NCBI GenBank assembly: GCA_964364425.1
Contig: CAYIMB010000001.1
Location: forward strand, 6,941-70,940
Length of the DNA: 64,000 bases
Reading direction: 5' to 3'
Origin: an uncultured Gammaproteobacteria bacterium
GTDB taxonomy: Bacteria > Patescibacteriota > Patescibacteriia > UBA9570 > JBBTWU01
Below, one piece after another: positions 21,484 through 54,011 of this stretch. Each line of letters begins with the position of its first letter. Position 1 is the first letter of the stretch. The notes below the pieces were generated by a model. It was not told the DNA's origin, did not search any database, and saw only the letters and a program-made list of their open reading frames with translations. A program made the translations under genes and the position numbers.

Positions 21484-23160
21484 ATGCCAGGAGGGATTTC
21501 AGAATTAGCCGTGGTCATGGGCTTGGCTGCTGTGTTGGGAATTATTCTTCGTCTATTTAAACAACCGTTAATTTTGGCGTATGTAGCGACCGGAGCTTGC
21601 ATAGGCTTATTTGGATTATTCCAGCTTCCGGACAAAGAAACATTTCAAATCTTTTCAGATCTAGGTATTATGTTTCTCCTGTTCTTGGTTGGATTGGAGA
21701 TGAATTATGCTTCACTCAAGGTGGTAGGCAAGGCTTCCATCATAGTTGGGCTAGCGCAGATTATGTTAACCGCCCTGATTGCCTTGGGGATTGCCCTGAT
21801 CTTCCGCTTCAGCTTACTTGAGTCTGCCTACATCAGTGCAGCTTTGACCTTCTCCAGCACTATTATTGTAGTGAAGTATCTTTCGGATAAAAAGGACGTA
21901 AATAGTCTGTATGGAAAAATCAGTGTTGGGGTGTTATTGGTCCAAGACGCGGTGGCTATTTTGACTCTGTTTTTCCTGACTAGCTTTTTAACCGAATCAG
22001 CCGTTCAGGTGACGCAAGCCTTGACCACTATTGGTTTTGGAATTCTGTTATTCATGTGTATTTTCTTGATTGGACGGTTTTTGTTGCCACCGCTGATGCG
22101 CTCAATTGGGCGTTCTCCCGAATTAGTCTTTGTGGTCAGCTTAGCGTGGTTATTTCTAGTGGTGGGCGCAGTGCACCAACTAGGATTTTCTTTAGAAATT
22201 GGAGGCTTTTTGGCTGGTGTCGCCTTGGCCCAAAGCGCAGAACACATGCAGATTGCTCACCGCATAGGAGCTTTGCGCGACTTTTTTCTCCTCATCTTCT
22301 TTGTCATCCTTGGCTCCTCCTTAATCTATGCTGACTTTCAGGGGTTGTTTGTTCCCATTCTCACACTCACCCTATTTGTACTGATAGGCAAACCGTTAGC
22401 CGTCATGGGAATTATGGGCTTCTTGGGGTATAGAAAACGAACCAGCTGGTTGACCAGTGTAACTCTTGGACAGGTGTCTGAGTTCAGTTTAATTTTGGTT
22501 GCGTTAGGCTTGCAACTTGAACATATCTCAAACCAAGTGGTGAGCCTGGTGACCGCTGTAGCTATTTTGACTATTACTTTTTCCACGTATGAAATGATGT
22601 ACGCAGATAAAGTGGCCAACAAGCTTTCCAGCCTTTTATCTGTGTTTGAAAGAAAGGTGACCAAGGAACCGCATTGGTCAACACAGAAAATTAAGAAGCC
22701 AATTATCTTGATTGGCGCTCACCGGACTGGCCAAAGTATTTTGGCTAACCTACCCATGGAGGAAGCCTTGGTCATAGATTTTGACCCTGAATTAATACAG
22801 CATTTAAAACAACGCGGATATAAAACTTTATTTGGAGATATTAGTGACCCAGAAGTTTTTGAAGCAGCTAGGTTTGGTCAAGCAGAATTAGTCATCTCAA
22901 CCAGCCCAGATATTGAAGACAATGTGTTACTGTTAGAAAAAATTCGGAAGCTGAGACGTCACCCCTTAGTTATTTTACGGGCAGAAACAGAGCGAGAAGC
23001 TGAAGTACTGTATAAACAAGGCGCGGACTACGTGCTCCTCCCGCACTTTACCTCCGGATATTACATTGGCCTAGCCTTGTCCAAGAATCGCACAGCCAAA
23101 AAACTCCATGCTTTGAGGAAAAAAGACGAAAAAATGTTGAACTTACAGGTCGTGTCCTGA
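21484..23160 (+). CDS. Cation:proton antiporter (CPA2/Kef-type) with C-terminal RCK/TrkA-N domain
   Basis: About 12 TM helices followed by a Rossmann-like RCK domain. Confidence 0.8.
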   Translation: MPGGISELAVVMGLAAVLGIILRLFKQPLILAYVATGACIGLFGLFQLPDKETFQIFSDLGIMFLLFLVGLEMNYASLKVVGKASIIVGLAQIMLTALIALGIALIFRFSLLESAYISAALTFSSTIIVVKYLSDKKDVNSLYGKISVGVLLVQDAVAILTLFFLTSFLTESAVQVTQALTTIGFGILLFMCIFLIGRFLLPPLMRSIGRSPELVFVVSLAWLFLVVGAVHQLGFSLEIGGFLAGVALAQSAEHMQIAHRIGALRDFFLLIFFVILGSSLIYADFQGLFVPILTLTLFVLIGKPLAVMGIMGFLGYRKRTSWLTSVTLGQVSEFSLILVALGLQLEHISNQVVSLVTAVAILTITFSTYEMMYADKVANKLSSLLSVFERKVTKEPHWSTQKIKKPIILIGAHRTGQSILANLPMEEALVIDFDPELIQHLKQRGYKTLFGDISDPEVFEAARFGQAELVISTSPDIEDNVLLLEKIRKLRRHPLVILRAETEREAEVLYKQGADYVLLPHFTSGYYIGLALSKNRTAKKLHALRKKDEKMLNLQVVS

Positions 23161-24732
23161 GTAAGACAGGTTGAAGGATTTATTGCACAGGGGGAAATCA
23201 GGAATGATATTACCTAATACACACCAGGCCAGAGCATCCCAGTTGTGGAAGCCGGCGTCTCTGATTTTTACCCGGTTAATTTTACCTTGAGAATCAGTCA
23301 TCACCACATACTGTAATTCACCCCTATTTGATTCCACACAGCTCCAACCAAAACTATTCGGGTTAAGGTCTACGCTCGTTTGTATTTCGCCAGCTTGTTT
23401 TAAGCCCGACAAGCACTGTTCTATGATGTGAATGGATTCAAGCAATTCATCCCGGCGCAGAAGGAAGCGAGCCAGCACATCTCCTTCTTTTCTGACTGGA
23501 ACGGTAAATTGGATTTTGGCGTATTGCCAGGTGGGAAAGTCTCGTCTGGCATCAATATGTATGCCTGAAGCCCGGGCTCCAACCCCAACAACTCCTAAAT
23601 CTTCAGCCACCTGTTTCTTCAATAGGCCGGTTGTTTCCAAGCGGTCAAGAGCACTAGGCATGGCCAAAACAATCTTTAGAATCTCATTCATTTCTGCAGC
23701 AATGCGTTTGAGCTCAGCCAGCAAGCGGTGTTGCTGGTCTTGGGTAAGGTCTTGTTTCACCCCGCCTAGAGTATTTACTCCCCGTAAAAATCGACTTCCC
23801 GTCAGCTCACGGTTGAGTTCAAGTAATTGTTCACGTAAGCGCCAGAGTTGGGAAGCGCCAAAATTGCAACCAATACCAACATTCATGTTGGCCAGGTCAT
23901 GCAAGTGAGTGTTCACCCGCTCTAGCTCCAGGAAAATCATGCGCAACCATTGGGCTCTGATGGGAATAGTCACACCCGCGGCATCTTCTACAGCAGCACA
24001 CAGCCCTGCGGAGTGGGCTATACTGTTGTCGCCAGAGATTTGTTCACTTAAATGGAGCCACTTGTCCTGGGGTAGGTGTTCAAACAATTTTTCCACCCCC
24101 CGGTGTTTCCAGCCAAGACGAATTTCTAAGTTCTGAATAGGTTCTCCGGCCACTTGGAAACGGAAATGGCCTGGTTCAATCACACCAGCGTGAATGGGGC
24201 CCACCGGAACCTCATATATTCCTTCACCCTCATAGCGTTTAAATGGATATGGTCTGGCGTCAGGCGTGCGTTTGACCGGAGCGTTCCAAGCCACATCTTT
24301 GCGTAAAGGAAAAAAGTCCGTCGGCCAATCACTGTGAGCAATGACAGATTTTAGTTCTGGGTGGTTGGAGGGAATCAAACCAAACATATCCCAAATATCC
24401 CGCTCATACCTGGCGGCAGCTACAGACAGGGCGGCGAGGCTGTGGTATTCAGATGATTGTTCCGGAACAACTGTACGTAGGATCAAGATCGATTTTTCTG
24501 CGTCTACTGACCAGATCAAGTACAGTCCAAACCCCTTGCTCTGAACACGTTCGTCCGTAGCAAAGTAATTAGACACGCGGGCGTGGGTGAAGGTTCGCTT
24601 CACGGCTGAAGCCACTTGGTACCACGTCTCAACGGGAACGGTGAATTGGTAACGGTCACCGTTCTGCTCAATACTTTGAGCCAAGTGCGGCCAATCCGCT
24701 AAGGTTTTGTTGAGTTGGTCAACCAGTGTCAT
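23143..24732 (-). CDS. Fused NuoC/NuoD-like (HycE/HyfG-like) large subunit without Ni-Fe ligand cysteines
   Basis: NuoC-like N-terminus (ERYERDIWDMFGL) and large-subunit core (GPIHAGVIEPGHFRF...WKHRGVEKL). The L1 motif reads QISGDNS in place of R-x-CGxC-G, and the C-terminus reads DFPLCNKS in place of DPCxxC. Confidence 0.85.
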   Translation of the reverse strand: MTLVDQLNKTLADWPHLAQSIEQNGDRYQFTVPVETWYQVASAVKRTFTHARVSNYFATDERVQSKGFGLYLIWSVDAEKSILILRTVVPEQSSEYHSLAALSVAAARYERDIWDMFGLIPSNHPELKSVIAHSDWPTDFFPLRKDVAWNAPVKRTPDARPYPFKRYEGEGIYEVPVGPIHAGVIEPGHFRFQVAGEPIQNLEIRLGWKHRGVEKLFEHLPQDKWLHLSEQISGDNSIAHSAGLCAAVEDAAGVTIPIRAQWLRMIFLELERVNTHLHDLANMNVGIGCNFGASQLWRLREQLLELNRELTGSRFLRGVNTLGGVKQDLTQDQQHRLLAELKRIAAEMNEILKIVLAMPSALDRLETTGLLKKQVAEDLGVVGVGARASGIHIDARRDFPTWQYAKIQFTVPVRKEGDVLARFLLRRDELLESIHIIEQCLSGLKQAGEIQTSVDLNPNSFGWSCVESNRGELQYVVMTDSQGKINRVKIRDAGFHNWDALAWCVLGNIIPDFPLCNKSFNLSYSGHDL

Positions 24733-24736
24733 AGAG

Positions 24737-26242
24737 TTAGTAGTTTAATACCAGTTCGGTTAATTTAGCCAGGTATACGGTAAGGCCCAACGGCAGCATG
24801 AGGCCAAGTCCCAGCATGAGCGTTCCGTTTAAGATCATAGCCGCACTGTTCCAAGCTGAAATGCGTACACCTTCCGGAGTATGAACGTGACCATTGTCAT
24901 CCGTTGTGTCTGATACCGGTTTGTGGTTAAACACCAAGCGCATGAGGTTGTATAAGAATCCGACAAAGACAATGACCAACAGGCCCAAGAGCAGCCAGAG
25001 CATCCACCCAGGTGCGTCACTGAGCCCCCAGAGTAAACTAAACTTGCTCAGGAAAATACTGAACGGGGGGAATCCGGTCATGGCCACGGCTGCCAGCATA
25101 AGAGCTAGGCCGGTCATGGGCATAACCTTCATTAAATTTGAAATGTTGGGGATTTTGGTTGATTGGTATTTTAGGAGCACATTTCCGGCGGCAAAGAAAG
25201 AAAAACTTTTGGCAATAGAATGGTTAATGACTTGGAATAAAGCGGCAAAGACACCAAGCGGGGTGGCGAGCGCTAAGCCAATCACAATCAAACCCATGTT
25301 CTCTATGGAACTATAGGCAAACAAACGTTTGTAGTTGTTCTGTCTGAGCAAAGACAGAGCAGCAATCCCTACAGACAAGAAACCTAAAATATACAGTAAT
25401 GTTCCGGTAAATTCTGTGCCTACGGATAAGTCTGAAATCATTTTAACCCTAATCAGAGCAAATAACGCTACGTTGAGCAACACAGCTGAAAGGAGTGCGC
25501 TGATTGGAGTAGGAGCTTTACCATGCGCATCTGGCAACCACGTGTGCATAGGCACCAAACCAATTTTGGTGCCGTATCCAATCAACAAGAAGACAAAGGC
25601 AATTTTGACTAATTCAGGGTTTAACTCACTGCCTAAACTGTGTAAGTGTGTCCACAGGAGTGTGCTGGCTTCTTCTCCTCCGGCGTTTAACCCAGAGAAG
25701 TAGAGCAGCACTGTTCCGGCCAAGGCTAAGGTCAGGCCTACCGAGCTCATGATGACGTACTTCCAAGCGGCCTCAATGCTTTGTTTGTGTCTGTAAATGC
25801 CAACTAAGAATGCGCTAGCTAAGGTTGTTGCTTCAACACCCACCCAGAGTAAGCCTAAGTTGTTGCTACTCACAGCTAAACTCATGGCCAACAAAAAGAC
25901 GTTGTACAAGACGTAATACAATTTCACCTGTCTGGCGTCCATTTCCTGTTGTGCCTCTTCTGTTTTCACATACCCAATAGAGTACAAAGTGACGGAGAAA
26001 CCAATGAACGCAATTAACGCCAAGAAGAAGAATGACAGGGGATCAATGTATAACAAATCACCAAACAACCCCAGACTTTGGTCTACACTCACCACCTCCC
26101 GGTACAAGAAATACATACTCCCAATAGACACCAGACTTGAAGCTAAAGTGGCTGTCTCAAAGATGACCCGTTTCCGTGTGGCCAAACACACCAGCGCGGC
26201 AACCAGTGGAGCAATCAGATATAACCAGTAGACAAGTGTCAT
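24737..26242 (-). CDS. NuoM/N / HyfF-like antiporter-type membrane subunit
   Basis: About 14 TM helices and the Mrp/NuoLMN antiporter-family pattern. Confidence 0.8.
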   Translation of the reverse strand: MTLVYWLYLIAPLVAALVCLATRKRVIFETATLASSLVSIGSMYFLYREVVSVDQSLGLFGDLLYIDPLSFFFLALIAFIGFSVTLYSIGYVKTEEAQQEMDARQVKLYYVLYNVFLLAMSLAVSSNNLGLLWVGVEATTLASAFLVGIYRHKQSIEAAWKYVIMSSVGLTLALAGTVLLYFSGLNAGGEEASTLLWTHLHSLGSELNPELVKIAFVFLLIGYGTKIGLVPMHTWLPDAHGKAPTPISALLSAVLLNVALFALIRVKMISDLSVGTEFTGTLLYILGFLSVGIAALSLLRQNNYKRLFAYSSIENMGLIVIGLALATPLGVFAALFQVINHSIAKSFSFFAAGNVLLKYQSTKIPNISNLMKVMPMTGLALMLAAVAMTGFPPFSIFLSKFSLLWGLSDAPGWMLWLLLGLLVIVFVGFLYNLMRLVFNHKPVSDTTDDNGHVHTPEGVRISAWNSAAMILNGTLMLGLGLMLPLGLTVYLAKLTELVLNY

Positions 26243-26243
26243 A

Positions 26244-26894
26244 TTAGTCTTCCTTCAACTCACTTAATTTTTCTGTATCTGTGGAGTGCATGAGTGTATT
26301 CATCCGGGCGGTCAACAGAGAGAGAATGGTAATGCCTAAGACCACATCTACCAATAGGCCTAGTTCCACCACCGCCGGTAAGCCTAACGTTGTGGCTATG
26401 GCTAACAAGAATACACCGTTTTCCAAAACTAGAAAGCCAACCATCTGACTCAAAGCTGCGCGTTGTGAAATGACCATCAGGAAGCCCAAGAAGATCAAAG
26501 ACATGGCCACCACCAACTGCCACTCACCATGGGGTGAAATAACTGAAGCAACGGGCTGGACAATAAAGTAGGAGAACACAATCAGTAAGCCGCCAATTAA
26601 GGCGATTGGCGCCGGGTTAATGACCGTTGGGGCTTTCAGGGCCGGTTTCAGACGCTTCAACAACAGGAGCAATCCACAGGGGATAGCCACAGCCTTTACT
26701 CCAATGGTGAGTAAAGCGGTCAGCCACAGGTGTTGTTGTCCTAAGTTCACCGCCACAAGGATGGTAATGATGCCAACTAGCGCGGCCTGTCCAATATATA
26801 AGTAGACTTGTGATCTAAAGATTGGCCTGACCAGCATGATCAAGGTAATAAACAGAACTAAACCGGTAAACCATTGAATAAAGTCAGTTATCAT
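26244..26894 (-). CDS. HyfE-like small membrane subunit
   Basis: 216 aa, polytopic, in the position of hyfE between the HyfC-like and HyfF-like genes. Confidence 0.6.
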   Translation of the reverse strand: MITDFIQWFTGLVLFITLIMLVRPIFRSQVYLYIGQAALVGIITILVAVNLGQQHLWLTALLTIGVKAVAIPCGLLLLLKRLKPALKAPTVINPAPIALIGGLLIVFSYFIVQPVASVISPHGEWQLVVAMSLIFLGFLMVISQRAALSQMVGFLVLENGVFLLAIATTLGLPAVVELGLLVDVVLGITILSLLTARMNTLMHSTDTEKLSELKED

Positions 26895-27838
26895 AAGCTT
26901 GCAAAGAGTTGAGTTACTAGGGCAATCATGGCCACCACCCAGCCCATACCCAGGAGTGCCGGTACTCTGAGCAAGCGCATTTTAGCCATAGAAGACTCCA
27001 CCAAGGCAATGAGGATAGCTAAGATGAACACTTTTCCTAACCAGAGGACTGTCCCAAGCAACACTGCGCTTAACGTCCACTCCGTAGCCATGCCCCAAGG
27101 CACAACTAAGCTAGCCAAAATGCTCAACATCACCGTGAGTTTAGTCATACTCCCAATCTCCATTAAGGCCAGGTTTTTTCCGGAATTTTCCAAGATCATG
27201 GCTTCATGTACCATGGTGAGCTCTAAGTGTGTGGTTGGGTTATCAAAGGGATAACGGGCATTTTCCGCCAGGGTGATGAGGAAAAAAGACAAGAAGACCA
27301 AAATCAAGGCTGGGTCTAACCAGGCATGTGGGGTGCCTAAGACATGACTGATTATTTCCCCAGGGTAGGTAGATCCTCCGGTCAAGGCTAAAGCAAACAA
27401 GGCAGTAATAAAGACTGGTTCAGCCAAGGCGCTGATCATGGCCTCTCTAGAAGAACCCATGCCTCCAAAGGTCGTCCCTGCGTCCAAGCCGGACAGGACC
27501 AAGAAAGCAGTACCCAGGACCAGAATAAAACCGACAAAAATCATATCAGCCTGAGCGCCAAGGTTGGTGACGTTTGGAAGTAAAAATGCAGCTGTTGCGG
27601 TGGTTCCAAACACCATATATGGGGCGAGTTTAAACACCCAGGAGGTCACATCAGACACCACAGCATCTTTACGGATAAATTTGAGAATATCTCGGTATCC
27701 CTGGAGCAAGGGAGCGCCAACGCGTCCTTGCAGACGAGCTTTGACTTTACGTATAACCCCCGTGACCAGAGGCGCAACGGTCAGCAGCAGCAGACCTTGA
27801 GCGAGAGAAATCAGAATGGCTTGTGTTGTCTGAGTCAT
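26891..27838 (-). CDS. NuoH / HycD / HyfC-like membrane subunit
   Basis: N-terminal GxIRKxKARLQGRxGxPLLQxYRDxLK signature. Confidence 0.85.
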   Translation of the reverse strand: MTQTTQAILISLAQGLLLLTVAPLVTGVIRKVKARLQGRVGAPLLQGYRDILKFIRKDAVVSDVTSWVFKLAPYMVFGTTATAAFLLPNVTNLGAQADMIFVGFILVLGTAFLVLSGLDAGTTFGGMGSSREAMISALAEPVFITALFALALTGGSTYPGEIISHVLGTPHAWLDPALILVFLSFFLITLAENARYPFDNPTTHLELTMVHEAMILENSGKNLALMEIGSMTKLTVMLSILASLVVPWGMATEWTLSAVLLGTVLWLGKVFILAILIALVESSMAKMRLLRVPALLGMGWVVAMIALVTQLFASL

Positions 27839-29925
27839 ATCGTTTTGGCTAACAACAGGAGAGCAATTAACGCCAGCATCATGTAAGTGAGGTAACTATA
27901 GATGTGACCGGATTGTACTTTTTTTACGGAGTTGCCTAAGCGAATGGAAAACCGGGTGATGGGTCTGACCACATAGTCATCAAAGAAGGCCAACGTGTGG
28001 ACTGAATATGAACGGACATGCCAGAAGTAAAAGTTATCCTGCCCTTTGGTCACATGGACTTGTTCTTTAGGACGCAAGAAATAGCGCAAGGCATGCCGCA
28101 CAGGGCTGGTAAACCCAAGGCCTGAATATTGCATGCGTTCATTTAGGGGAGAACCGCAATCCCAAGACGGGCCTTTGACCACTCTGTTTTTCCCTCCCAC
28201 TAATTTCAAGATAATCCAAGCCAGTAGCATCAAGCCAAGCAGAAATACCAGAACCGTCCAAGCGCTGTTTCCAAATGAGACTGTTCCAGTGAGCTGTGCT
28301 TGATAGCTGAGGGTGGTTAGTGGCTCCAGTAGGTCAATAACGTTTGATCCAGCCGCTTGTTTTGTGATCCCCCAAAATTTAGGTAGACGTGCCAGTGTAT
28401 CTAGGACCTCACCCATGCCAAGCGAGATGCCTAAGGCACCTGCCGCCAAGACCAGCATAGAAATACGCATAGACAAAGGAGTTTTAGCCGGTGTAGGAAT
28501 ACCAGCGTCATGGGGTGTCCGGTTCCGGCCTAAGAACACAATTCCAAACATACGGGTGAAGACCACAAAGGCTAAGCCTGCGGCAAAAGCCAGGGCTCCT
28601 AAAATAAGAGGAAAGATAAAGCGCGCTCCCATACTTCCGGTCATAAAACCCTGTAACAACGTTTGTAGCATGAGCCACTCAGAGGCAAATACGCTGAGTG
28701 GAGGAAGGCCCATTAACCCAATTGCACCAACCAAGAAGATCATGGAAGTCAGAGGCAATACTTTGGCCACCCCACCTAGTAAATCCATAGACCTGGTGTG
28801 GAAGGAAAAATACACACTCCCCGCACCCAAGAATAATAACGATTTAAGCACCGCATGATTTACCGTATGCAGCAACGCAGCAATAATTGCTACGTGGGCA
28901 ATGGCCGGTTTCCCAATTGAGGTAAAATACATAGCCGCACCCAAGCCAATAAAAATAATTCCAATATTCTCTATAGAAGAGAAGGCTAAGGCTTTTTTCA
29001 TGTCGCGGCGTTCAATGGCATAAAACACGCCCACCAAAGCAGAAATTCCACCTAAGGCCATGACCAACAGCCCCCACCAGGGAGACATGACTTCCAACAT
29101 GCTTAAACCAAATACGCGGAAGAAGCCATACACCGCTACTTTTAACATCACTCCGGACATCAAGGCGGAAATATGCGACGGGGCTTGTGGGTGTGCTTCC
29201 GGCAACCACATATGCATGGGGACTAAGCCGGCTTTTGTTCCGAAGCCTAAAACTAAGAGGATAAAAGCAAAGGTGGCCATGCCCGGGGTCAGAAATCCGC
29301 CCACGCCCGTCCAATCGTTAAAAAACAGAGATCCGCTGTTATATGAGAAAATAATAAACACGGCCATCAAGAATGCGGTGCCAATCTGCGTCATAATGGC
29401 ATAGATAAATCCGGCTGGTCGGGCTTTGGCGTGGGAGTGTTGGTACACCACCAGCGCAAACGAAGTGAGCGCCATGATTTCCCAGGCAAATAAGAAAGTA
29501 AGAGCATGGGAGGCCACTAAGACCAAGGCCATAGACGCAATAAACCAGTTGGTCATGGCTCCTAGCCAGCCAAGACTATGGTGGCCAATATAGAGCTTGG
29601 CGTACCCAATTCCGTATAAGCTAGTAACAGCGGCTATACCACCCAGAAGTAGCAAAAATAGGCCAGAAAAGGCATCTATATGGATAGATCCTTGGCCAAA
29701 AATGAGGAAATAGGGAAGAGAAAAGGCTTTGTCTTGAGCGGCTTGATGTAAGGCTGTATATCCAACCAGAGCTAAGACCACGCCTCCTACCACGCCTCCC
29801 CAACCACTCACCCAGCGGGACAACACTTGGGCACGGCTACATACCAAAGCAAACGCCCCAGACGCCACTAAGATGCCTAGACTGGTGGTAAAAAGTGCCA
29901 GATTTGAGCTCCCAACCTGTATCAT
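27835..29925 (-). CDS. NuoL / HyfB-like antiporter-type membrane subunit
   Basis: 696 aa, about 17 TM helices, antiporter-family core. Confidence 0.8.
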   Translation of the reverse strand: MIQVGSSNLALFTTSLGILVASGAFALVCSRAQVLSRWVSGWGGVVGGVVLALVGYTALHQAAQDKAFSLPYFLIFGQGSIHIDAFSGLFLLLLGGIAAVTSLYGIGYAKLYIGHHSLGWLGAMTNWFIASMALVLVASHALTFLFAWEIMALTSFALVVYQHSHAKARPAGFIYAIMTQIGTAFLMAVFIIFSYNSGSLFFNDWTGVGGFLTPGMATFAFILLVLGFGTKAGLVPMHMWLPEAHPQAPSHISALMSGVMLKVAVYGFFRVFGLSMLEVMSPWWGLLVMALGGISALVGVFYAIERRDMKKALAFSSIENIGIIFIGLGAAMYFTSIGKPAIAHVAIIAALLHTVNHAVLKSLLFLGAGSVYFSFHTRSMDLLGGVAKVLPLTSMIFLVGAIGLMGLPPLSVFASEWLMLQTLLQGFMTGSMGARFIFPLILGALAFAAGLAFVVFTRMFGIVFLGRNRTPHDAGIPTPAKTPLSMRISMLVLAAGALGISLGMGEVLDTLARLPKFWGITKQAAGSNVIDLLEPLTTLSYQAQLTGTVSFGNSAWTVLVFLLGLMLLAWIILKLVGGKNRVVKGPSWDCGSPLNERMQYSGLGFTSPVRHALRYFLRPKEQVHVTKGQDNFYFWHVRSYSVHTLAFFDDYVVRPITRFSIRLGNSVKKVQSGHIYSYLTYMMLALIALLLLAKTI

Positions 29926-30464
29926 ACAGAGGTTGTTTTAGCGGCCAGACGGTCAACGGCAGCCAAGAGTCCGGCCAACAGATCTGAAGGGGTTGGTGGG
30001 TTTCCAGGAATCCAGATATCCACAGGCAAGACCGCATCCACGCCACCAACAATTCCGTAAGAACCCTTAAAAATACCACCGTCTTTAGCGTTATCTCCAA
30101 AAGCCACCACAATTTTAGGTGTTGGCATGGCGTTATACGCACGTTTTAAGGCCTCTTCCATATTTCGTGAGACCGGACCGCTGACTAACAACATATCTGC
30201 GTGCCTAGGCGAAGCAGCCACATGAATACCATAGCGTTCCATATCATAGTAGGGGTTGGCCAACATATTCACTTCAACCTCTTCCGCGTTGCTGGAACCC
30301 GGATCAACCTCACGGATATGCAAAGAACGGCCAATCAGCCGTTTTATTTTTTGACTTAACTCCCCACGCAGCAGTTCAATATCTTTTGGAACAGCGGCTT
30401 CCTGAGCGAATTTTTTTTTGGTCACTACCCCGTTTAAGAGGCTTTTTTTGAGCAACTGAAACAT
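29922..30464 (-). CDS. NuoB / HycG-like small subunit lacking all four [4Fe-4S] cysteine ligands
   Basis: Conserved NuoB scaffold (ASPRHADMLLVSGPV...YNAMPxPKxVxAFG...GGVDxxLPVDIWIPGxPP). The four Cys positions read P, S/A, N and N. Confidence 0.85.
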   Translation of the reverse strand: MFQLLKKSLLNGVVTKKKFAQEAAVPKDIELLRGELSQKIKRLIGRSLHIREVDPGSSNAEEVEVNMLANPYYDMERYGIHVAASPRHADMLLVSGPVSRNMEEALKRAYNAMPTPKIVVAFGDNAKDGGIFKGSYGIVGGVDAVLPVDIWIPGNPPTPSDLLAGLLAAVDRLAAKTTSV

Positions 30465-30636
30465 AATTGAGAATTATAACTCCTCCCGCAAATCGAATTT
30501 TATCAGACAACTGTCAAGTAGTATTAGGAATACGAATCTCCTTGTCAAATGGCCTAAAAGCGAGTTTTATACAGCATGTCAAGGCAAAAAGGGGCTTGAC
30601 GCCGGGAAAAAAAATGATCCAAAAATTTTGGCTGGG

Positions 30637-30665
30637 TTGACACAAAATCCCGTACTCCGTAGACT
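30637..30665 (+). promoter_or_regulatory. Sigma70-type promoter TTGACA-N17-TAGACT for the ATP synthase operon
   Basis: Consensus -35 with a 17-nt spacer, 24 nt upstream of the atpZ-like ATG. Confidence 0.6.
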
Positions 30666-30689
30666 GGGAACGCGTAAACTTGACAGAGT

Positions 30690-30901
30690 ATGGATAAAGA
30701 ACCGTCTTGGGCTGATTCAATGCGCCTGGTAGGTCAGCTTGGTTTTGAAATAGCGTTGCCCCTGGTGGGAGGAGCGTGGGGAGGGCACTGGCTGGACCAA
30801 CGCTATACTGCCTCACCTAAGTTTTTGTTGGTTGGGATGGTTTTAGCCGTGATTCTCTCTACACTCTTGGTGGCACACAAAATTAAACAGTTGCTGAAAT
30901 A

Positions 30902-30902
<1 letters not shown>
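30690..30902 (+). CDS. AtpZ/AtpI-like small membrane protein
   Basis: 70 aa, two TM helices, immediately upstream of atpB. Confidence 0.6.
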
Positions 30903-31977
<1,075 letters not shown>

Positions 31978-31978
31978 C

Positions 31979-32479
31979 ATGGAATTCATAGAAAAATTTG
32001 GGATCGATTGGAAACTGTTGATTGCGCAAGCGGTTAACTTTGCCATTGTGCTTTTGGTCTTATGGAAGTTTGCTTACAAACCCATCTTGAAGTTGCTGCA
32101 TGACCGGGAAAACAAAATTGATCAGAGTTTAAAAGACGCGGACAGAGTGGAAAAGTTGAAAGTGGAAATGGAGCAGGAAAAGTCCAAAGTTTTGGCTCAG
32201 GCAAAGAAGGAAGCACAGGTGGTTTTGCAGGAGGCACAGAAGAAAATCGAAATGAATAGACAGGCACAAATGGACAAAACAAAAGGGGAGGTACAGCAGC
32301 TAGTGACCAAAGCCAAACAAGAAATTGCTGCGGAAAAGGTGAAGGCCATGAAGCAAGCGGAAAAGGAATTGGGCTCAATTGCGGTGACTATTGCAGAGAA
32401 GTTAGTCAAACGTGAGCTGACTGATACAGATCATGCTCGCTTGGTGAGTGAGACTTTGAAGGAAATAGGAACCGTATGA
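31979..32479 (+). CDS. atpF: F-type ATP synthase Fo subunit b
   Basis: One TM helix then a long charged helix. The ATG at 31979 is preferred over the TTG at 31970. Confidence 0.85.
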   Translation: MEFIEKFGIDWKLLIAQAVNFAIVLLVLWKFAYKPILKLLHDRENKIDQSLKDADRVEKLKVEMEQEKSKVLAQAKKEAQVVLQEAQKKIEMNRQAQMDKTKGEVQQLVTKAKQEIAAEKVKAMKQAEKELGSIAVTIAEKLVKRELTDTDHARLVSETLKEIGTV

Positions 32480-32877
32480 AGCGCGTATCCCCGGGGCAAC
32501 TCGCCAGACAATTATTCAAAGCTTTGGAAAGCTCGCAAGAGCAGGACCTAGTCATTCAGGTATTTGCGGAGCAACTGGTGCGGCACAGACTGAGACGACA
32601 TTTGCCTCAAATCTTGCGAGCCCTAGAGACGCTTTTAGATGAGAAAGAAGGATTGGTTAAAGCGAAGTTTACTAGTCCAGTAGAGGTAACGAACCACTTA
32701 AAAAAACAAGTTGAGCAGGCCGTTTCTCAAGCTGTGGGTAAACGTGTGGAACTAGAGACGCACCAGGACCAAGACTTACTTGGTGGAGCCGTGCTCAAAA
32801 TAGGGGATACCGTGTACGACGCTTCAATTCGTACACAATTAGCAAAATTGAAACTTTCGGTAGAGAACTATGGATAA
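32476..32877 (+). CDS. atpH: F-type ATP synthase subunit delta (short)
   Basis: Position in the operon and OSCP-like C-terminal region. Confidence 0.75.
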
Positions 32878-34369
32878 AGAAAAAATATTAGACTCGCTTA
32901 AACAACACATTTCTAGCTTTGCCGCTACGGTGGATAAAGCAGAAGTGGGAACCGTGATTGAAGTGGGAGACGGCGTGGCCAAATTATCTGGACTAACCCA
33001 AGCGGTGGCAGATGAAATGATTGAATTTGCCAACGGTGCGTATGGAGTGGTGTTGAACTTAGAGTCAGAACAAGTGGGCGCTATGGTGTTGGGTGATTTT
33101 TCTACCATCCGTGAAGGTGAAACGGTCAAACGAACCAATCGTATTTTGTCTGTTCCGGTGTCTGATGCCTTGATTGGTCGCGTGGTCAATCCTTTAGGCA
33201 TGCCTTTGGATGGAAAAGCAGCTATCTCATCCAAGGAATTCTATCCAGTAGAACGTATTGCACCTGGTGTTATTCAACGTCAAAAAGTGGATCAACCGGT
33301 ACAAACGGGTATCAAAGCTATAGACGCCATGATCCCAATTGGTCGTGGTCAACGTGAGTTGATTATTGGTGACCGGCAAACTGGTAAAACGGCCATTGCT
33401 ATAGACGCCATCATCAACCAAAAGGGGAAAGACCTGATTTGTATTTACGTAGCTATAGGTCAAAAGGAATCTAAGACCGCTCGGATTGTGGCCAAACTGC
33501 AAGAGACCGGAGCTATGGACTACACTATAGTGGTGAACGCTCCAGCTTCTAGCCCAGCTTCCTTGCAATATATTGCTCCATACGCCGGTGTAGCTATAGC
33601 TGAATTCTTCATGGACCAAGGGAAAGATGTATTGGTTGTATATGATGATTTGTCCAAGCATGCTTGGGCCTACCGTCAGATCTCTTTGATCTTACGTCGT
33701 CCACCGGGTCGTGAAGCCTACCCGGGTGATATTTTCTATGCTCACTCTCGTTTGTTGGAACGGGCTAACCGTCGAGCCAAAGAATTTGGTGGAGGTTCCA
33801 TCACTGCCTTACCAATTATTGAAACTCAAGCCGGTGACGTGTCTGCCTATATTCCAACCAACGTGATTTCCATTACTGACGGTCAAATCTACTTGGAGTC
33901 AGACTTGTTCTACCAAGGTATTCGTCCAGCCTTGAACGTAGGTTTGTCTGTGTCTCGTGTAGGTTCAGCAGCCCAACTCAAGCCTATGAAAAAAGTAGCT
34001 GGAAAATTACGTTTAGACTTAGCTCAATACCGTGAGTTGGCCGCTTTTGCCCAATTTGGGTCTGACTTGGATGAGGCAACCAAAAAGCAGCTAGAGCGCG
34101 GTAAACGCACCATTGAAATCTTGAAACAAGATCAATACCAACCAGCTTCTGTGGCGCATCAAGTGTTGGCCATATACGCTGTGTCTAACGGATTCATGGA
34201 TGATGTAGAAGTAGACAGCGTTCGTCGTTTTGAAAATGAAATGACGGAATATGTTGATCAATCCGCTCGTGAGTTAGTGGAAAAAGTGGAAAGTGGTGAT
34301 TGGAGTGATGAAACTGCAGACAAAGTGAAAAAATTGATTGAGGACTTTAAGCAAGTGTGGAGTAAGTAA
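32870..34369 (+). CDS. atpA: F-type ATP synthase subunit alpha
   Basis: Walker A motif GDRQTGKT and alpha-specific motifs. Confidence 0.95.
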
Positions 34370-34370
34370 T

Positions 34371-36708
<2,338 letters not shown>

Positions 36709-36725
36709 ATCGATTATTACGCGAC

Positions 36726-37190
36726 ATGAAACTGACACTCAAAGTCACTACTCCAGACCGAACGTTGATCAACGCTGAAGTTGATCAGGTGACGGTACCT
36801 ACAAAAGAAGGGGAGATCACCATTCTCCCTGGACACGTGTCCTTAATGGGTGTGCTGGCACCAGGGGAATTAAGTATGAAAACTGATGCGAAGGAAGAAG
36901 CTGTTGTGGTCTACGGTGGCTTTGTGGATATCAGAGATGGAAGAGAAGTCAGAATTTTAGCTGATGAAGCTGCTCACGTTGCGGAGTTGGATTTAGAAAA
37001 GGCGGAAGCCGCACACGCTCTCGCGGTGCGGGTTATGGCTGAAAAGTTCAACCCAAGCGACTATGAAGATGCAGCACTTGCTGTTGAAAGAGAATTGGCG
37101 ACCATTCGAGTTGCTCGCAAATGGAAAGCCAAAGGCTTTGGAACAAGTACGGTGACAAGTGGGATCCCTGGGGCGCAAAGAAAAGAATAA
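36726..37190 (+). CDS. atpC: F-type ATP synthase subunit epsilon
   Basis: Beta-sandwich N-terminus, helical C-terminus, last gene of the operon. Confidence 0.85.
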   Translation: MKLTLKVTTPDRTLINAEVDQVTVPTKEGEITILPGHVSLMGVLAPGELSMKTDAKEEAVVVYGGFVDIRDGREVRILADEAAHVAELDLEKAEAAHALAVRVMAEKFNPSDYEDAALAVERELATIRVARKWKAKGFGTSTVTSGIPGAQRKE

Positions 37191-38150: not shown

Positions 38151-38159
38151 GTGGGAAGT

Positions 38160-41100
38160 ATGGAAAAAATCTTAGACGGTCTGAATTCAGCTCAAGCCGA
38201 AGCGGTGTGCCACCGGAATGGTCCATTGTTGTTGGTGGCCGGAGCGGGGACGGGAAAAACGACAGTCATTACCAGGCGCTTGGCCAAGCTCATTCAGGAT
38301 GGGGTGGCTACTCCTGATCAGGTATTAGCTCTGACCTTTACTGACAAGGCAGCGGGTGAGATGGAAGAGCGTATAGATACTTTGATGCCCTATGGGTATA
38401 CAGATTTATGGGTATCTACATTTCATTCTTTTGGAGAACGTTTGCTCCATGAGTATGGGCTGGACATAGGCCTGCCGCATCAATTCAAATTGTTGAATCA
38501 AACGGATCAATGGTTACTCTTGCGCGAACATATTGAGGAATTGGGCCTGGAGTACTACCGGCCAAAAGGCAATCCGACCAAATTTGTTGAAGCGTTATCT
38601 CACCATTTTTCTCGTTTGAAAGATGAGATGATTACACCGGAGCAATATGTGGAATATGCAGAAAAGTTGTGTCTAAACTTAGACGCAGAAGTTGCGCGGA
38701 CAAAACAAACCTTAACAGATGAAGAACGGGCAGGTGCAGATGAAGCCATACGTATTCGCGAGTTAGCCCACGCCTACCATGTATATCAACAGTTATTACT
38801 GGCAGAAAACGCTTTAGACTTTGGTGATCTGATTTTCCATACCGTGCAGTTACTAAAAAAACGTCCGGCTATTTTAAAAAAATTGCGTGATCAATTTCGC
38901 TATATTATGGTAGATGAGTTTCAAGATACCAACTTGGCACAATACGAGCTGATCAAGTTAATTGCTTCACCTAAAAATAATTTGGTGGCCGTGGGTGATG
39001 ATGACCAATGCCTCCCGGTAGGAACAAAAGTAACCATCCCCGGCGGAGAAAAAAGTATTGAGAGCATTAAATCTGGCGATGTGGTTTTGACTGCAGTCGG
39101 GAAAGGAAGTTTGAGCACTTCCGTAGTTTTAGCCTGTTCAAAAAAGAAAAAGACTTCAAGATTTCTTACATTTCAACTAGAAGATGGTCATTCATTAACT
39201 GCTACAGATAATCACAAGCTTTTTTGTTACGTCCCAAGAATTGATCAAGGGGGTAGAACCTATGTTTATGTGATGCATAGTTCATTGTTTGGGTGGAGGA
39301 TTGGAATAACAAATGATTTGGCCACCAGGTTATCTTTAGAAAGGGGTGCTGATAAAATTATAGCTTTACGCTCATTTTCTGATCCAGATGAAGCGAAGTT
39401 CTATGAAATACTGTGGGTTCTGCGTTATCAAATTCCGCCTGTTTGTTTTAAAGAAAGAGAGGGGGTAGCCATTAAGGGGGAATGGTTGAGTCGTCTATAC
39501 CATGAAATAGACACTGAAAAGAATATACAAAAGTTAGCAAAAGATCTGAGGGTAGATTTGCATAGTCATCATGTTGGTTTAGATAGTGTCAATAGAGGTC
39601 GGGGCAAGCGGCTAAAGATTCATTTTAAACTTTGCTATAGAAGTCATAAAATAAAAGGGAGGAATGATTCGATTCTATCTCAACCCCTTGTTCAACATAT
39701 AGTTGAGTTCCAAACTTCCCAATTAGACATCATCCGGAAATTAAAGTTAGCGGGAATTGAAACTCAGAAAGCTAAAAAAGGAATCAGGATCAGAAAGGCA
39801 GGTGTTGACTTAACTGTATTAGAAAACTTTGCACAAAAGGTTGCAGAGATTACAACAGGCTACATTGAATACTCTTTCGATGTCGGGAGAGTAAATATAC
39901 AATCTAAAAAAGCTTTATGTATGCCAGCAGGGAATGTTGTGATTGGTCATTTTTTGCCCGTACAAGTTAAAAATCATATTGAGTATAAAAAGGTTATTGC
40001 TATTCAAGAAAAAGTTACTACGGAGAATGTATATGATTTGGAGATTGCCAGAAGTCACAACTTTTTGGCTAATGGAGTAGTAGTACATAATTCGATTTTC
40101 AAATGGCGTGGAGCATCCGTGTCTAATATTCTGCACTTCCAAAAAGATTTTCCAAACCTGAAGCAAATCGTGCTCACAGAAAATTACCGGTCAGGGCAAC
40201 CTATTCTGGATTTAGCCTACCAATTCATTCAGCAAAATAATCCGGACCGTTTGGAATCAAAACTAGAGATTCAAAAACGGTTGGTGGCTAAGTCAGGACG
40301 TGAGGGAAAGGTATTTCATTTGCGCAGTATGACCGGAGAAGGTGAGGCGCATACTATTGTGAGAAAGATTGCGGAGTTGAAACAGGAACATCCGGACTGG
40401 ACCTGGAGTGATTTTGCCGTTTTGGTTAGGGCGAATGATCATGCGGAAAGTATTTTACCGTTGTTGGAACGGGCCAACATTCCTTACCAGTATGTAGCTT
40501 CCACGGGATTATTTTTGAAACCGCTTATGTTGGATATTTTGTCGTATTTGCGCGTGGTGGAAAATGTGCATAACAATTTGGCTTTGTACCGCGTGCTGAC
40601 CATGCCCATGTGGAAGCTGGCGGCAGAAGATGTGATGGCAGTGTTGAATTACACTGCCCGCAAACCGGTGGGGATGTTGGACACGCTGAAGAACTGTCGA
40701 GCCATTGGGGGCCTGAGCGTTCCAGCGTGTGTGACCATAGAACGCATGCTTTCACTCATGGCCCAGCACTCCCAATTGGTGCGTGAAAAACATGCGGGAG
40801 AGGCGGTCTTGAAGATTGTTCAAGACGTTGGATTGATGAAATGGATGACGGATCAAGAGGAACAGAAGGCGGCACAACATTTGGTCTTACTCAACCAATT
40901 ATTCCAACTGATCGCCTCGTTTGAACAAAGTGCTGAGGATAAGCGGGTTAAATACTTTCTACACAACGTAGATTTAATGCTTGAGGCTGGGGATGCTGGT
41001 GCACTGAAAGTAGATATTGATGAAGGGCCGGAATCAGTTAAAGTCATGACGGTACACGCTTCCAAGGGTCTGGAGTTTCAAGCCGTATTTGTCACCAATC

Positions 41101-42182
41101 TAGTGGATAAACGATTTCCTTCAGTTGGTCGGAACGAACCTATTTCTGTTCCGGATGATTTGCTCCAAGAAATTTTACCCACCGGGGATGCGCATCTTCA
41201 AGAGGAACGTCGTTTATTTTATGTTGCCTGTACCCGGGCTAAACAATACTTATTCCTTACCAGTGCGGAAGATTACGGTGGTATGCGGAAGAAAAAACCC
41301 AGCCGGTTTTTAGTTGAATGTGGATTGGCTGAAGTCAAAGCTGAACCAACCGGCGTGGTGGCCTTTGCAGCGCAAGATCAGGCCATTCCTGCGGAACGCG
41401 CTGTGGTGTTGTCGCATGCCCCTGAGACGTTTAGCTTCTCCCAATTTGAGGCCTATGAACGCTGTCCCTGGCAATACCGGTACCGGTTTGTCCTCAAAGT
41501 ACCGGCCCCCGGAAACTACTCAGCTTCCTTTGGTCGTAGCGTGCATGACACCTTGTTGGAGTTTTTTAAACGTGTGCGGTCTAACACAGAAGCCTCACAG
41601 GGCACGTTGTTTGGTCCGGCGGAAAAACTTACGCTTCCCACAGACAAAGACCTCCTCCAAATTTTTGAAGACAAATGGCAGTCTGATTGGTATGCTACAC
41701 CCAAAGCTGAACAAGAATATAAAGAAGCCGGTCGTAACGCCTTAAAAGAGTTTTACAACATCCATCATCAGGCCTGGCCCAAGGTGAAGTATTTGGAAAA
41801 AGGATTTTCTTTGCGTCTAAAAGACGTCACGGTGAAAGGTAAAATTGACCGGGTAGATGGAGTGGGAGATTCAAAGGTTCAGGTCAATGTGGTGGATTAT
41901 AAAACTGGGCGGTTCAAAGAAAAGAAAGACTTCAACCAGTTGTTTATTTACGCCATGGCCATTCAGGACGTGTTTAAAGAAGAACCGCAACAGGTTGGAT
42001 ATTATTTTATTGAAGAAAATAAACCTTTGGATAAACCGGTGACTCAGCAGGCCTTAGACAAAACGCGTGATTGGGTGCTGAACCTAGCTGAGCAAATTCT
42101 GTCCGGCGACTTTACGCCCTCCCCAGGCCAGCAATGCCAATTTTGTGATTACCGCTCCATTTGTGAATTTAGAGCGGTTTAA
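38160..42182 (+). CDS. UvrD/PcrA-family helicase fused to a C-terminal Cas4/AddB-like PD-(D/E)xK nuclease with a Cys cluster; interrupted by an intein
   Basis: Walker A motif GAGTGKT, motif II DEFQD, motif III VGDDDQ/SIFKWRGA split by the intein, C-terminal VVDYKTG nuclease motif and C...CxxCx5C cysteines. The ATG at 38160 is preferred over the GTG at 38151. Confidence 0.85.
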   Translation: MEKILDGLNSAQAEAVCHRNGPLLLVAGAGTGKTTVITRRLAKLIQDGVATPDQVLALTFTDKAAGEMEERIDTLMPYGYTDLWVSTFHSFGERLLHEYGLDIGLPHQFKLLNQTDQWLLLREHIEELGLEYYRPKGNPTKFVEALSHHFSRLKDEMITPEQYVEYAEKLCLNLDAEVARTKQTLTDEERAGADEAIRIRELAHAYHVYQQLLLAENALDFGDLIFHTVQLLKKRPAILKKLRDQFRYIMVDEFQDTNLAQYELIKLIASPKNNLVAVGDDDQCLPVGTKVTIPGGEKSIESIKSGDVVLTAVGKGSLSTSVVLACSKKKKTSRFLTFQLEDGHSLTATDNHKLFCYVPRIDQGGRTYVYVMHSSLFGWRIGITNDLATRLSLERGADKIIALRSFSDPDEAKFYEILWVLRYQIPPVCFKEREGVAIKGEWLSRLYHEIDTEKNIQKLAKDLRVDLHSHHVGLDSVNRGRGKRLKIHFKLCYRSHKIKGRNDSILSQPLVQHIVEFQTSQLDIIRKLKLAGIETQKAKKGIRIRKAGVDLTVLENFAQKVAEITTGYIEYSFDVGRVNIQSKKALCMPAGNVVIGHFLPVQVKNHIEYKKVIAIQEKVTTENVYDLEIARSHNFLANGVVVHNSIFKWRGASVSNILHFQKDFPNLKQIVLTENYRSGQPILDLAYQFIQQNNPDRLESKLEIQKRLVAKSGREGKVFHLRSMTGEGEAHTIVRKIAELKQEHPDWTWSDFAVLVRANDHAESILPLLERANIPYQYVASTGLFLKPLMLDILSYLRVVENVHNNLALYRVLTMPMWKLAAEDVMAVLNYTARKPVGMLDTLKNCRAIGGLSVPACVTIERMLSLMAQHSQLVREKHAGEAVLKIVQDVGLMKWMTDQEEQKAAQHLVLLNQLFQLIASFEQSAEDKRVKYFLHNVDLMLEAGDAGALKVDIDEGPESVKVMTVHASKGLEFQAVFVTNLVDKRFPSVGRNEPISVPDDLLQEILPTGDAHLQEERRLFYVACTRAKQYLFLTSAEDYGGMRKKKPSRFLVECGLAEVKAEPTGVVAFAAQDQAIPAERAVVLSHAPETFSFSQFEAYERCPWQYRYRFVLKVPAPGNYSASFGRSVHDTLLEFFKRVRSNTEASQGTLFGPAEKLTLPTDKDLLQIFEDKWQSDWYATPKAEQEYKEAGRNALKEFYNIHHQAWPKVKYLEKGFSLRLKDVTVKGKIDRVDGVGDSKVQVNVVDYKTGRFKEKKDFNQLFIYAMAIQDVFKEEPQQVGYYFIEENKPLDKPVTQQALDKTRDWVLNLAEQILSGDFTPSPGQQCQFCDYRSICEFRAV
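39009..40091 (+). mobile_element. Intein (361 aa) in helicase motif III
   Basis: Begins with Cys directly after VGDDDQ, has a block-B TxxH (TATDNH), and ends VVVHN followed by Ser. The extein halves rejoin to the canonical GDDDQSIFKWRGA. Confidence 0.8.

Positions 42183-51285: not shown

Positions 51286-54011
<2,726 letters not shown>

Follow-up and report, generated by a model that had tools for sequence, protein, structure and literature searches.

The window analysed here, a stretch of 64,000 nucleotides (64 kb) of contig CAYIMB010000001.1 from a bacterium of the candidate phyla radiation (CPR, or Patescibacteria), encodes a membrane module related to complex I and to the group 4 [NiFe]-hydrogenases. 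The module is of the energy-converting hydrogenase-related (Ehr) type, and its Ni-Fe and Fe-S ligands have all been lost. It consists of six intact and tightly packed open reading frames (ORFs) on the minus strand, at 23143-30464. A first-pass annotation of this DNA had described a six-gene operon with the same boundaries; the ORFs lie at exactly those positions, and the Pfam and NCBIfam matches agree with the anatomy that it had proposed. From the first to the last gene, the module reads as follows.

29922..30464, minus strand: NuoB-like (hydrogenase small-subunit-like) protein, 180 aa, the first gene of the operon (Pfam PF01058, 3.9e-25; NCBIfam NF005012)
27835..29925, minus strand: HyfB/HycC/NuoL-like antiporter-like subunit, 696 aa (PF00361, Proton_antipo_M, 1e-51)
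26891..27838, minus strand: HyfC/HycD/NuoH-like subunit, 315 aa (PF00146, NADHdh, 4.2e-38)
26244..26894, minus strand: HyfE-like small membrane subunit, 216 aa (NCBIfam PRK11492, hydrogenase-4 membrane subunit, 3e-23)
24737..26242, minus strand: HyfF/NuoM/N-like antiporter-like subunit, 501 aa (PF00361, 9.5e-54)
23143..24732, minus strand: fused NuoC-NuoD/HycE-like large subunit, 529 aa (PF00329, Complex1_30kDa, and PF00346, Complex1_49kDa)

PF01058, matched by the NuoB-like protein, is the family Oxidored_q6/NuoB, and the C-terminal half of the HyfE-like protein is weakly NuoK-like (Pfam Oxidored_q2, 8e-4, under its cut-off). The antiporter-like domain PF00361 is present in only two of the proteins (HyfB-like and HyfF-like), so that the three antiporter-like subunits counted earlier come down to two. 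All six proteins score under the NCBIfam equivalog cut-offs (569 bits against a cut-off of 667 for hydrogenase-4 subunit B in the case of the HyfB-like protein, 447 against 610 for subunit F in that of the HyfF-like one), and therefore none of them is an orthologue of Escherichia coli Hyf. Overlaps of 4 nt, at first ascribed to most gene junctions, join the NuoB-like and HyfB-like, the HyfB-like and HyfC-like, and the HyfC-like and HyfE-like genes; a 1-nt spacer separates the HyfE-like gene from the HyfF-like gene, but the junction between the HyfF-like and large-subunit genes is a 4-nt spacer with no overlap.

We compared the module with 160 related loci, 80 from species-representative genomes and 80 from metagenomes, which were found by an alignment-based scan of contigs; a single-protein scan of the same contigs gave none. 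The genome-derived loci comprise 8 true Ni-Fe enzymes, 54 Ehr loci with a cysteine-containing small subunit, and 15 Ehr loci in which the small subunit keeps at most one of the four ligand cysteines (cofactor-free loci). The closest relatives form a clade of 12 clusters (the window clade), with large subunits 57 to 84% identical and small subunits 73 to 92% identical, in which the NuoB-like gene comes first and no gene for a ferredoxin-like 2x[4Fe-4S] subunit (Fer4) is found.

In the small subunit, alignment to HycG (7z0s_G) and MbhJ (6cfw_J) places S58, E61, N125, and N155 at the four ligand positions of the proximal [4Fe-4S] cluster. The CxxC motif has become S58..E61, GxC has become GDN (N125), and PGCPP has become PGNPP (N155). 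The loss of all four cysteines, claimed from the sequence at the outset, is borne out by these solved structures: in the small and in the large subunit alike, the structure-guided alignments show the cysteines to be replaced, not shifted. The cysteines of the N2 cluster of complex I NuoB are likewise missing from the NuoB-like protein. The motifs DPGS[ST]NAEE, GDNAKDGG, and PGNPP are invariant in 12/12 members of the window clade. An AlphaFold2 prediction of the NuoB-like protein from a 17-sequence alignment had a mean predicted local distance difference test score of 54, too low for the model to be used, with the former cluster loops least confident.

The large subunit was aligned to HycE (7z0s_E, 1.9e-67), and the four Ni-Fe cysteine positions proved to be S233, N236, S523, and G526; the CGxC motif reads S233-G-D-N236, and the C-terminal CxxC is replaced by S523..G526. 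The quinone ligands of the Thermus thermophilus Nqo4 subunit, H38 and Y87, align to I185 and G234. The loss of the Ni-Fe cysteines was correctly called by the first-pass annotation, but it is not special to this operon. The large subunit bears the Ehr signature E230-x-x-S233-G-D235 ... N517-K-S-F-N-L-S523-Y-S-G526-x-D, and the same cysteine-less signature (E-R-x-S-G-D...H and N-K-S-F-N-L-S-Y-S-G-x-D) is common to 120/120 of its best homologues, which include proteins of Methanoperedens, Methanocella, and Nitrospiria; kinship with Ehr had been a guess, and this signature upholds it. One protein, from a “Patescibacteria group bacterium” metagenome-assembled genome (MAG) of the Hainich groundwater, is 100% identical.

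The residues that took the place of the Ni-Fe site are themselves conserved. S233 is found in 15/15 cofactor-free and 49/54 Fe-S-containing Ehr loci, D235 in 15/15 and 51/54, S523 in 15/15 and 54/54, and G526 in 15/15 and 52/54, where the Ni-Fe relatives have C, A/V, C, and C; the 8 Ni-Fe relatives carry C, C, C, and C at the positions of S233, N236, S523, and G526. This Ehr pocket (S233, D235, S523, G526, N521, and D492) is equally conserved with or without the small-subunit cluster. The same is true of the motif of the beta1-beta2 loop, PVGPIHAGVIEPGHFRF, which is invariant in both groups; in relatives, this loop couples the active site to the membrane. A remaining cysteine near the former Ni-Fe site, C245, occurs in 11/15 cofactor-free and 45/54 Cys-containing Ehr loci and in 3/8 Ni-Fe relatives.

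Within the window, no other carrier of electrons was found to take over. A CxxCxxCxxxC motif is missing from all of its ORFs, whatever the frame, and the operon, the rest of the window, and the syntenic relatives L003, L004, and L006 (surveyed loci are cited by number) are all without a Fer4-type ORF. The HycF/NuoI-like subunit and the HycB/HyfA Fe-S subunits are missing from the module, as had been noted before. Pfam scans of the larger ORFs of the window, which is all that was covered of this genome, gave no hyp, NuoE/F/G, or ferredoxin genes. NuoA, I, J, and N and NuoE/F/G of complex I were not found in the operon or in the window, and no formate dehydrogenase or maturation genes lie near the module within these 64 kb.

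The survey revealed two architectures, one with NuoB last, with or without a separate or fused Fer4, and one with NuoB first and no Fer4. A typical relative (L001) has the order HyfB-HyfC-HyfE-HyfF-NuoCD-Fer4-NuoB; in the Fer4 subunit of this locus (112 aa; Pfam Fer4) the cysteine motifs are of the ferredoxin type, and none of the four small-subunit cysteines has been lost. The small-subunit cluster is kept in 54/69 loci with a Cys-less large subunit, and NuoB-first loci with an intact cluster are found in Rokubacteria, Chloroflexi, and Actinomycetes (Streptomyces, Nonomuraea, and Streptosporangium). The nearest Ni-Fe relatives (ERICGxC / NKSFELCYxCxDR) have the gene order L-H-E-M-CD in common with the module. 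In an exhaustive profile search, about 28 of the 151 best representatives of 50%-identity clusters had at most one ligand cysteine. What distinguishes the window clade is thus the added loss of the small-subunit cluster together with the absence of Fer4, a variant that recurs and is not a one-off.

A rough, midpoint-rooted neighbour-joining tree of the large subunit has the cofactor-free forms at four separate positions. The first is a CPR-dominated NuoB-first clade with the window clade, Daviesbacteria, Saccharibacteria, Falkowbacteria, and other Patescibacteria, which also holds single Bdellovibrionales and Thermoleophilia MAGs. The second is L007, from Chloroflexi, which branches among the Cys-containing NuoB-first loci, the third is a NuoB-last clade of Methanosarcinales and Dehalococcoidales, and the fourth is L075. 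This distribution implies no fewer than three to four independent losses of the small-subunit cluster within Ehr. Such recurrent loss argues that the core activity of the family may not need the cluster. The replacement residues vary by lineage (E, A, C, V, T, or P at position 2; N, D, G, A, or E at position 3), which argues against a new, defined metal site in place of the cluster, a possibility that we disfavour on this ground.

Three further observations concern these loci. Four members of the NuoB-last clade (L067, L084, L085, and L095; Methanosarcinales/Dehalococcoidales and metagenome) have lost the ligands independently, with a D-T/P-D-N pattern, and show no linkage to ATP synthase genes. 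Two Nitrospirota MAGs (L054 and L058) carry two complete Ehr operons in tandem on the same strand, with unlike large-subunit signatures (SGT...CDM/TDM-type and SGD...NQSYSG-type). At 12739-14337 of L115, the NuoH-like and HyfE-like subunits are apparently fused in one ORF of 532 aa.

The module is under strong purifying selection and is not decaying. Comparison of the window with L003, L004, and L006 shows saturation at synonymous sites, where dS either exceeds 2 or is incalculable; dN ranges from 0.12 to 0.49, and dN/dS, where computable, from 0.05 to 0.13. The NuoB-like protein is the best conserved of the six subunits (dN/dS 0.054), with 84%, 77%, and 73% identity to its counterparts in L003, L004, and L006, respectively. 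The same six-gene order is kept in these loci, down to 57% identity of the large subunit. The reduction of CPR genomes and the loss of all cofactor ligands might suggest a relic, namely a former hydrogenase or Ehr operon in decay. This reading is effectively excluded by the dN/dS values (obtained with saturated dS), by six intact ORFs with overlapping start and stop codons in an order kept down to that identity, and by the invariance of the functional residues.

Residue conservation in the membrane arm was compared in the 14 to 15 cofactor-free loci that have the subunit in question and in their Cys-containing relatives. In the HyfB-like protein, aligned to HycC (7z0s_C), E149 (transmembrane helix [TM] 5), K231 (TM7), H245, K262 (TM8), H357 (TM11), K361, and E416 (TM12) are invariant in the cofactor-free relatives. 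The HyfF-like protein, whose best match among solved structures is MbsH, was aligned to MbsH and MbhH; E137, K226, H341, and K345 are invariant, and the TM12 position (K400) is Lys or Glu in relatives. The HyfC/NuoH-like protein aligns to HycD (7z0s_D, 5.4e-44), with D119, R131, E132, E140, E192, D199, H204, E206, E212, E217, E281, and R288 conserved. The HyfE-like protein had no sequence match among solved structures; its E158 is invariant in cofactor-free relatives, and E177 and D183 are also conserved for the most part. The ion pathways thus keep their canonical charged residues without change in the cofactor-free loci, just as in the Cys-containing relatives. The TM8 position of the HyfF-like protein is N257, and Asn is found there in most Ehr; the TM8 lysine, central in NuoM/N-type subunits, is kept in the HyfB-like protein (K262).

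The strongest functional lead, absent from the first-pass annotation, is the physical linkage of the module to an F1Fo ATP synthase operon.

30690..37190, plus strand: F1Fo ATP synthase operon, divergent from the module, with atpI-like, a, c, b, delta, alpha, gamma, beta, and epsilon genes
30465..30689, no strand: intergenic region of 225 bp from which the module and the ATP synthase operon diverge; it holds two promoter-like sites placed back to back

The ATP synthase genes of the window match Pfam ATPase_gene1, ATP-synt_C, and ATP-synt_DE_N and are homologous to those of the other loci. In the intergenic region, TTGACA at 30548 is followed on the minus strand, after a 17-nt spacer, by AATACT ending at 30520, and TTGACA at 30637 on the plus strand, after a 17-nt spacer, by TAGACT ending at 30665. 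Both sites match 10/12 positions and are consensus matches only, their count being not above chance for the region. Among the loci of at least 8 kb, F1Fo genes lie within 10 kb in 10/16 of the cofactor-free NuoB-first loci, versus 0/90 of the other Ehr/hydrogenase loci, and no Cys-containing Ehr locus is linked to ATP synthase genes. The relative orientation varies.

Module divergent from the ATP synthase genes: the window, L003
ATP synthase genes downstream on the same strand: L004, L006, L117
Module convergent with the ATP synthase genes: L012
Module directly after atpC on the same strand: L011, L059, L109, L115, L135

In L135 (1643-2630), the NuoB-like gene begins 2 nt past the stop codon of atpC. 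The c subunit of the window (31765-31977) lacks the Na+-binding Gln/Ser/Thr motif, which makes H+ the probable coupling ion of the ATPase and, for the same reason, disfavours a Na+-coupled enzyme as the partner of the module.

On its other side, the module meets a transporter gene.

21484..23160, plus strand: Kef/CPA2-type cation/proton exchanger with a TrkA_N domain (PF00999, 8e-55; PF02254, 1e-22)

This gene converges on the large-subunit gene with an 18-nt overlap at its 3' end. The exchanger is missing from the same position in the otherwise syntenic L003, which makes it context and not a conserved partner. In L004 and L006, the neighbours are a CBS protein and a CitMHS/Na_sulph_symp-type carrier. 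The rest of the window is made of CPR housekeeping genes (aminoacyl-tRNA synthetases, RecO, TGT, ClpB, GyrB, and NusG), and an Rfam scan of it gave no RNA family. We reject a recent horizontal insertion or mis-binning, since both flanks are syntenic with L003, CPR housekeeping genes surround the module throughout the 64 kb, and its GC content is only slightly raised (0.48-0.49 versus about 0.46).

Other genes of the window, all on the plus strand, deserve mention in their own right. A UvrD/AddA-like helicase-nuclease (38151-42182) carries an Intein_splicing/Hint insertion at about residues 284-647, and GyrB (51315-54011) carries an Intein_splicing insertion at about residues 458-662. A CarS-like gene (54026-54586; CDP-archaeol synthase family, PF01864, 3.9e-30), of a family usually tied to archaeal lipid synthesis, is present in this CPR bacterium. 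The gene at 57820-59256 encodes an unusual fusion of MtrA-like, thymidylate-synthase, and pterin-binding DUF4346 domains.

We propose that the module is a functional, cofactor-free complex of the Ehr type that translocates ions independently of redox reactions and works with an H+-type F1Fo ATPase, a reading to which we give a probability of about 0.5. The membrane arm (two antiporter-like subunits, the NuoH-like, and the HyfE-like subunit) would still conduct ions along the canonical Glu/Lys/His pathways. The peripheral arm (NuoB-like and NuoC-NuoD-like) would carry no electrons, so that the energy would have to come from an ion gradient and not from redox chemistry. The complex might then be a secondary electrogenic exchanger of H+ for a cation (Na+ or K+) or a related converter of the proton motive force. 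In respiration-less CPR bacteria, the F1Fo ATPase could build an H+ gradient on fermentative ATP, which the module would convert or regulate, and the peripheral arm may survive because it caps or gates the NuoH-like channel from the cytoplasmic side. The ion and solute transporters next to the module (Kef-type in the window, the CBS protein and the carrier in L004 and L006) also count in favour of this proposal. The intact genes, the lost ligands, the purifying selection, the conserved channel residues, and the linkage to the ATP synthase operon are observations; ion transport itself, the identity and direction of the ions, and the role of the peripheral arm are what we infer from them. The first-pass annotation had ruled out a hydrogenase or a conventional redox-driven pump, which agrees with the loss of all Ni-Fe and Fe-S ligands and of Fer4; of the two functions that it had offered instead, a non-redox ion translocator is the best supported, as a predicted function, but nothing supports a sensor.

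Several points weigh against the proposal. The function of Ehr complexes is described as unknown in the literature (10.1101/765248, PMC10284858, PMC6728331). Pfam and NCBIfam detect no MrpB/E/F/G-type subunits in the module, and with these missing a path for the cation is not evident. The c subunit looks H+-specific, in which case a Na+ cycle would not be required. The conserved, Ehr-specific pocket (S233, D235, S523, N521, D492, and mostly C245) suggests that the peripheral arm may be more than a cap. The test of the ATP synthase linkage (Fisher's exact test on loci of at least 8 kb; P = 2.5e-10) ignores shared ancestry among CPR genomes, and our view of this genome is that of the 64-kb window alone.

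The pocket (E230, S233, D235, S523, N521, and D492) is at the centre of the main rival explanation, in which the peripheral arm would carry out a non-redox chemistry, or a gating step, coupled to ion translocation. A hard metal ion or a substrate might occupy the pocket, and a non-redox reaction there, such as a hydration/dehydration or a hydrolysis, would power the membrane arm or draw its power from it; an analogy is offered by CupA/NDH-1MS and DabAB, in which CO2 hydration is coupled to an antiporter-like subunit. The attraction of this explanation is that the pocket is kept with or without the cluster, being equally conserved in cofactor-free and Fe-S-containing Ehr, unlike in the Ni-Fe relatives. 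The invariant motif of the beta1-beta2 loop points the same way, and the repeated loss of the cluster with the pocket retained fits a site that never needed electrons. Still, no candidate substrate is apparent, no conserved gene for an accessory enzyme flanks the operon, and the conservation of the pocket could be structural or related to gating, and we consider this chemistry unlikely.

A complex that transports nothing is less probable again. The module would in this case sense the proton motive force or the state of the membrane, or help to regulate or assemble the ATP synthase, for instance as a brake or a scaffold, with the complex-I fold kept only as a conformational switch. Such a role would suit the tight linkage to the atp genes, including the 2-nt junction between atpC and the NuoB-like gene, and the lack of an obvious energy source or second-ion pathway. 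It is hard to reconcile with the charged proton-pathway residues, invariant in four subunits, which are difficult to explain unless ions move, and Pfam and NCBIfam find no signalling output domain in the operon.

It is very improbable that the module is still a redox enzyme, either with a cluster held by Ser, Glu, Asn, and Asp ligands or with electrons handled by a ferredoxin, flavodoxin, or Fe-S protein that is encoded elsewhere and docks to its peripheral arm. Asp, Ser, and Glu occasionally ligate Fe-S clusters elsewhere, 54/69 of the loci with a Cys-less large subunit keep the small-subunit cluster, and a partner could be encoded beyond the 64 kb in view. However, all four ligands are replaced, by residues that differ across lineages, no operon of the window clade has a Fer4 subunit, and the large subunit, with neither Ni-Fe nor quinone ligands, offers nothing to receive electrons.

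One may also go further than the non-redox ion translocator proposed above. Tentatively, and at well under even odds, the whole Ehr family might be non-redox at its core, with the cluster as a dispensable accessory. The CPR form and the F1Fo ATPase would then be one functional unit, a membrane energiser and gradient converter of two components, and the former Ni-Fe pocket would perform or gate a non-redox step.

Neither the Ehr family nor its large subunit without Ni-Fe ligands is new. In the literature searched, which did not extend to the founding Ehr paper, we found no description of a cofactor-free Ehr, nor of an ATP-synthase-linked Ehr, a CPR-dominated clade, or the recurrence of a combined loss of Fe-S ligands and Fer4. 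The complete loss of Fe-S ligands and Fer4, its recurrence, the CPR-dominated clade, and the linkage to ATP synthase are new in the sense that no published description was found. To our knowledge, the complex-I-like machines characterised so far (complex I, NDH-1, Fpo, MBH, MBS, and FHL) all run on electrons that pass through Fe-S clusters. A complex that has been stripped of its cofactors and is still under selection is a natural experiment on how the peripheral and membrane arms communicate, and a simple target for cryo-electron microscopy and transport assays. CPR bacteria, as far as we know, have no respiratory chains and keep an F-type ATP synthase; a complex-I-like partner of that enzyme, often co-oriented with it and sometimes abutting it, is a testable candidate for a part in their membrane energetics. 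If real, a unit of ATPase and cofactor-free Ehr would explain how these ultra-small, respiration-less cells build and manage ion gradients. The recurrent loss of the cluster also constrains hypotheses on the function of Ehr in general, including the hypoxia-linked Rv0082-Rv0087 of Mycobacterium tuberculosis. These results should interest specialists in complex I and CPR.

Among known systems, hydrogenase-4 of the formate hydrogenlyase FHL-2 (Hyf, group 4a) shares the HyfB-C-E-F membrane arm with the module, and the best NCBIfam and Protein Data Bank (PDB) matches of the subunits are HyfB, HyfE, HyfF, HycD, HycE, and HycG. Unlike the module, Hyf and the group 4f [NiFe]-hydrogenases have Ni-Fe ligands, a proximal cluster, HyfH/HycF, HyfA/HycB, and HyfD. 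The L1 (RxCGxCxxxH) and L2 (CxxCxxR-type) cysteines of group 4 [NiFe]-hydrogenases are absent from the module, and their ferredoxin-like 2x[4Fe-4S] subunit (HycF/HyfH/NuoI) is absent from the operon, the window, and the loci of the clade.

The Mrp (Mnh/Pha) antiporters work without redox cofactors and are driven by an ion gradient, the mode of action that we propose for the module. Like the module, they have two PF00361 subunits and a NuoK-like small subunit, and MrpA/MrpD are among the structures and NCBIfam models that the HyfB-like and HyfF-like proteins match, at 1e-20 to 1e-40; the only counterpart of MrpC in the module is the weakly NuoK/MrpC-like half of the HyfE-like protein. Mrp differs in having MrpB/E/F/G, subunits of a type thought to carry Na+ in Mrp and MBH, and in lacking NuoH-, NuoB-, NuoC-, and NuoD-like subunits.

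Respiratory complex I differs from the module in the N2 ligands of NuoB and the quinone-binding His and Tyr of NuoD. Deactive mitochondrial complex I reportedly acts as a Na+/H+ antiporter (Roberts and Hirst, 2012), and would thus resemble what we propose for the module, a complex-I architecture that moves ions without redox turnover. There, however, the enzyme has all its cofactors and the antiport is a side activity, whereas the redox part of the module is permanently disabled. The MBS/Mbx complex of Pyrococcus furiosus (PDB 6u8y) is likewise complex-I-like, and its large subunit has lost the Ni-Fe site. MBS keeps three [4Fe-4S] clusters, and catalysis uses the proximal one (PMC7684303). The module has no cluster ligands left.

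The Ehr complexes are said to have been defined by Marreiros et al. in 2013. Examples are those of Nitrospira, Margulisbacteria, and Elusimicrobia and Rv0082-Rv0087 of M. tuberculosis, in which we take the first two genes, rv0082 and rv0083, to encode the NuoB-like and HyfB-like subunits. They are close to the group 4f hydrogenases and lack the CxxC motifs in the large subunit (PMC6349859, PMC10284858), and no Ehr structure was among the solved structures matched here. The typical Ehr differs from the module in a small subunit that keeps all four [4Fe-4S] cysteines (54/69 loci), many operons encode a separate or fused 2x[4Fe-4S] subunit of which the window clade has none, and the Cys-containing loci, unlike the window clade, lack linkage to ATP synthase genes. 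The likeness lies in homologous subunits, a large subunit without Ni-Fe cysteines, the SGD / NKSFNLSYSG signature, and antiporter-like membrane subunits. It extends to gene order: rv0082-rv0087 are listed with the six-gene layout NuoB-like, HyfB-like, HycD-like, HycP/HyfE-like, HycQ/HyfF-like, and HycE-like (PMC6901956), which is the order of the module and is also found in the Streptomyces, Nonomuraea, and Streptosporangium loci.

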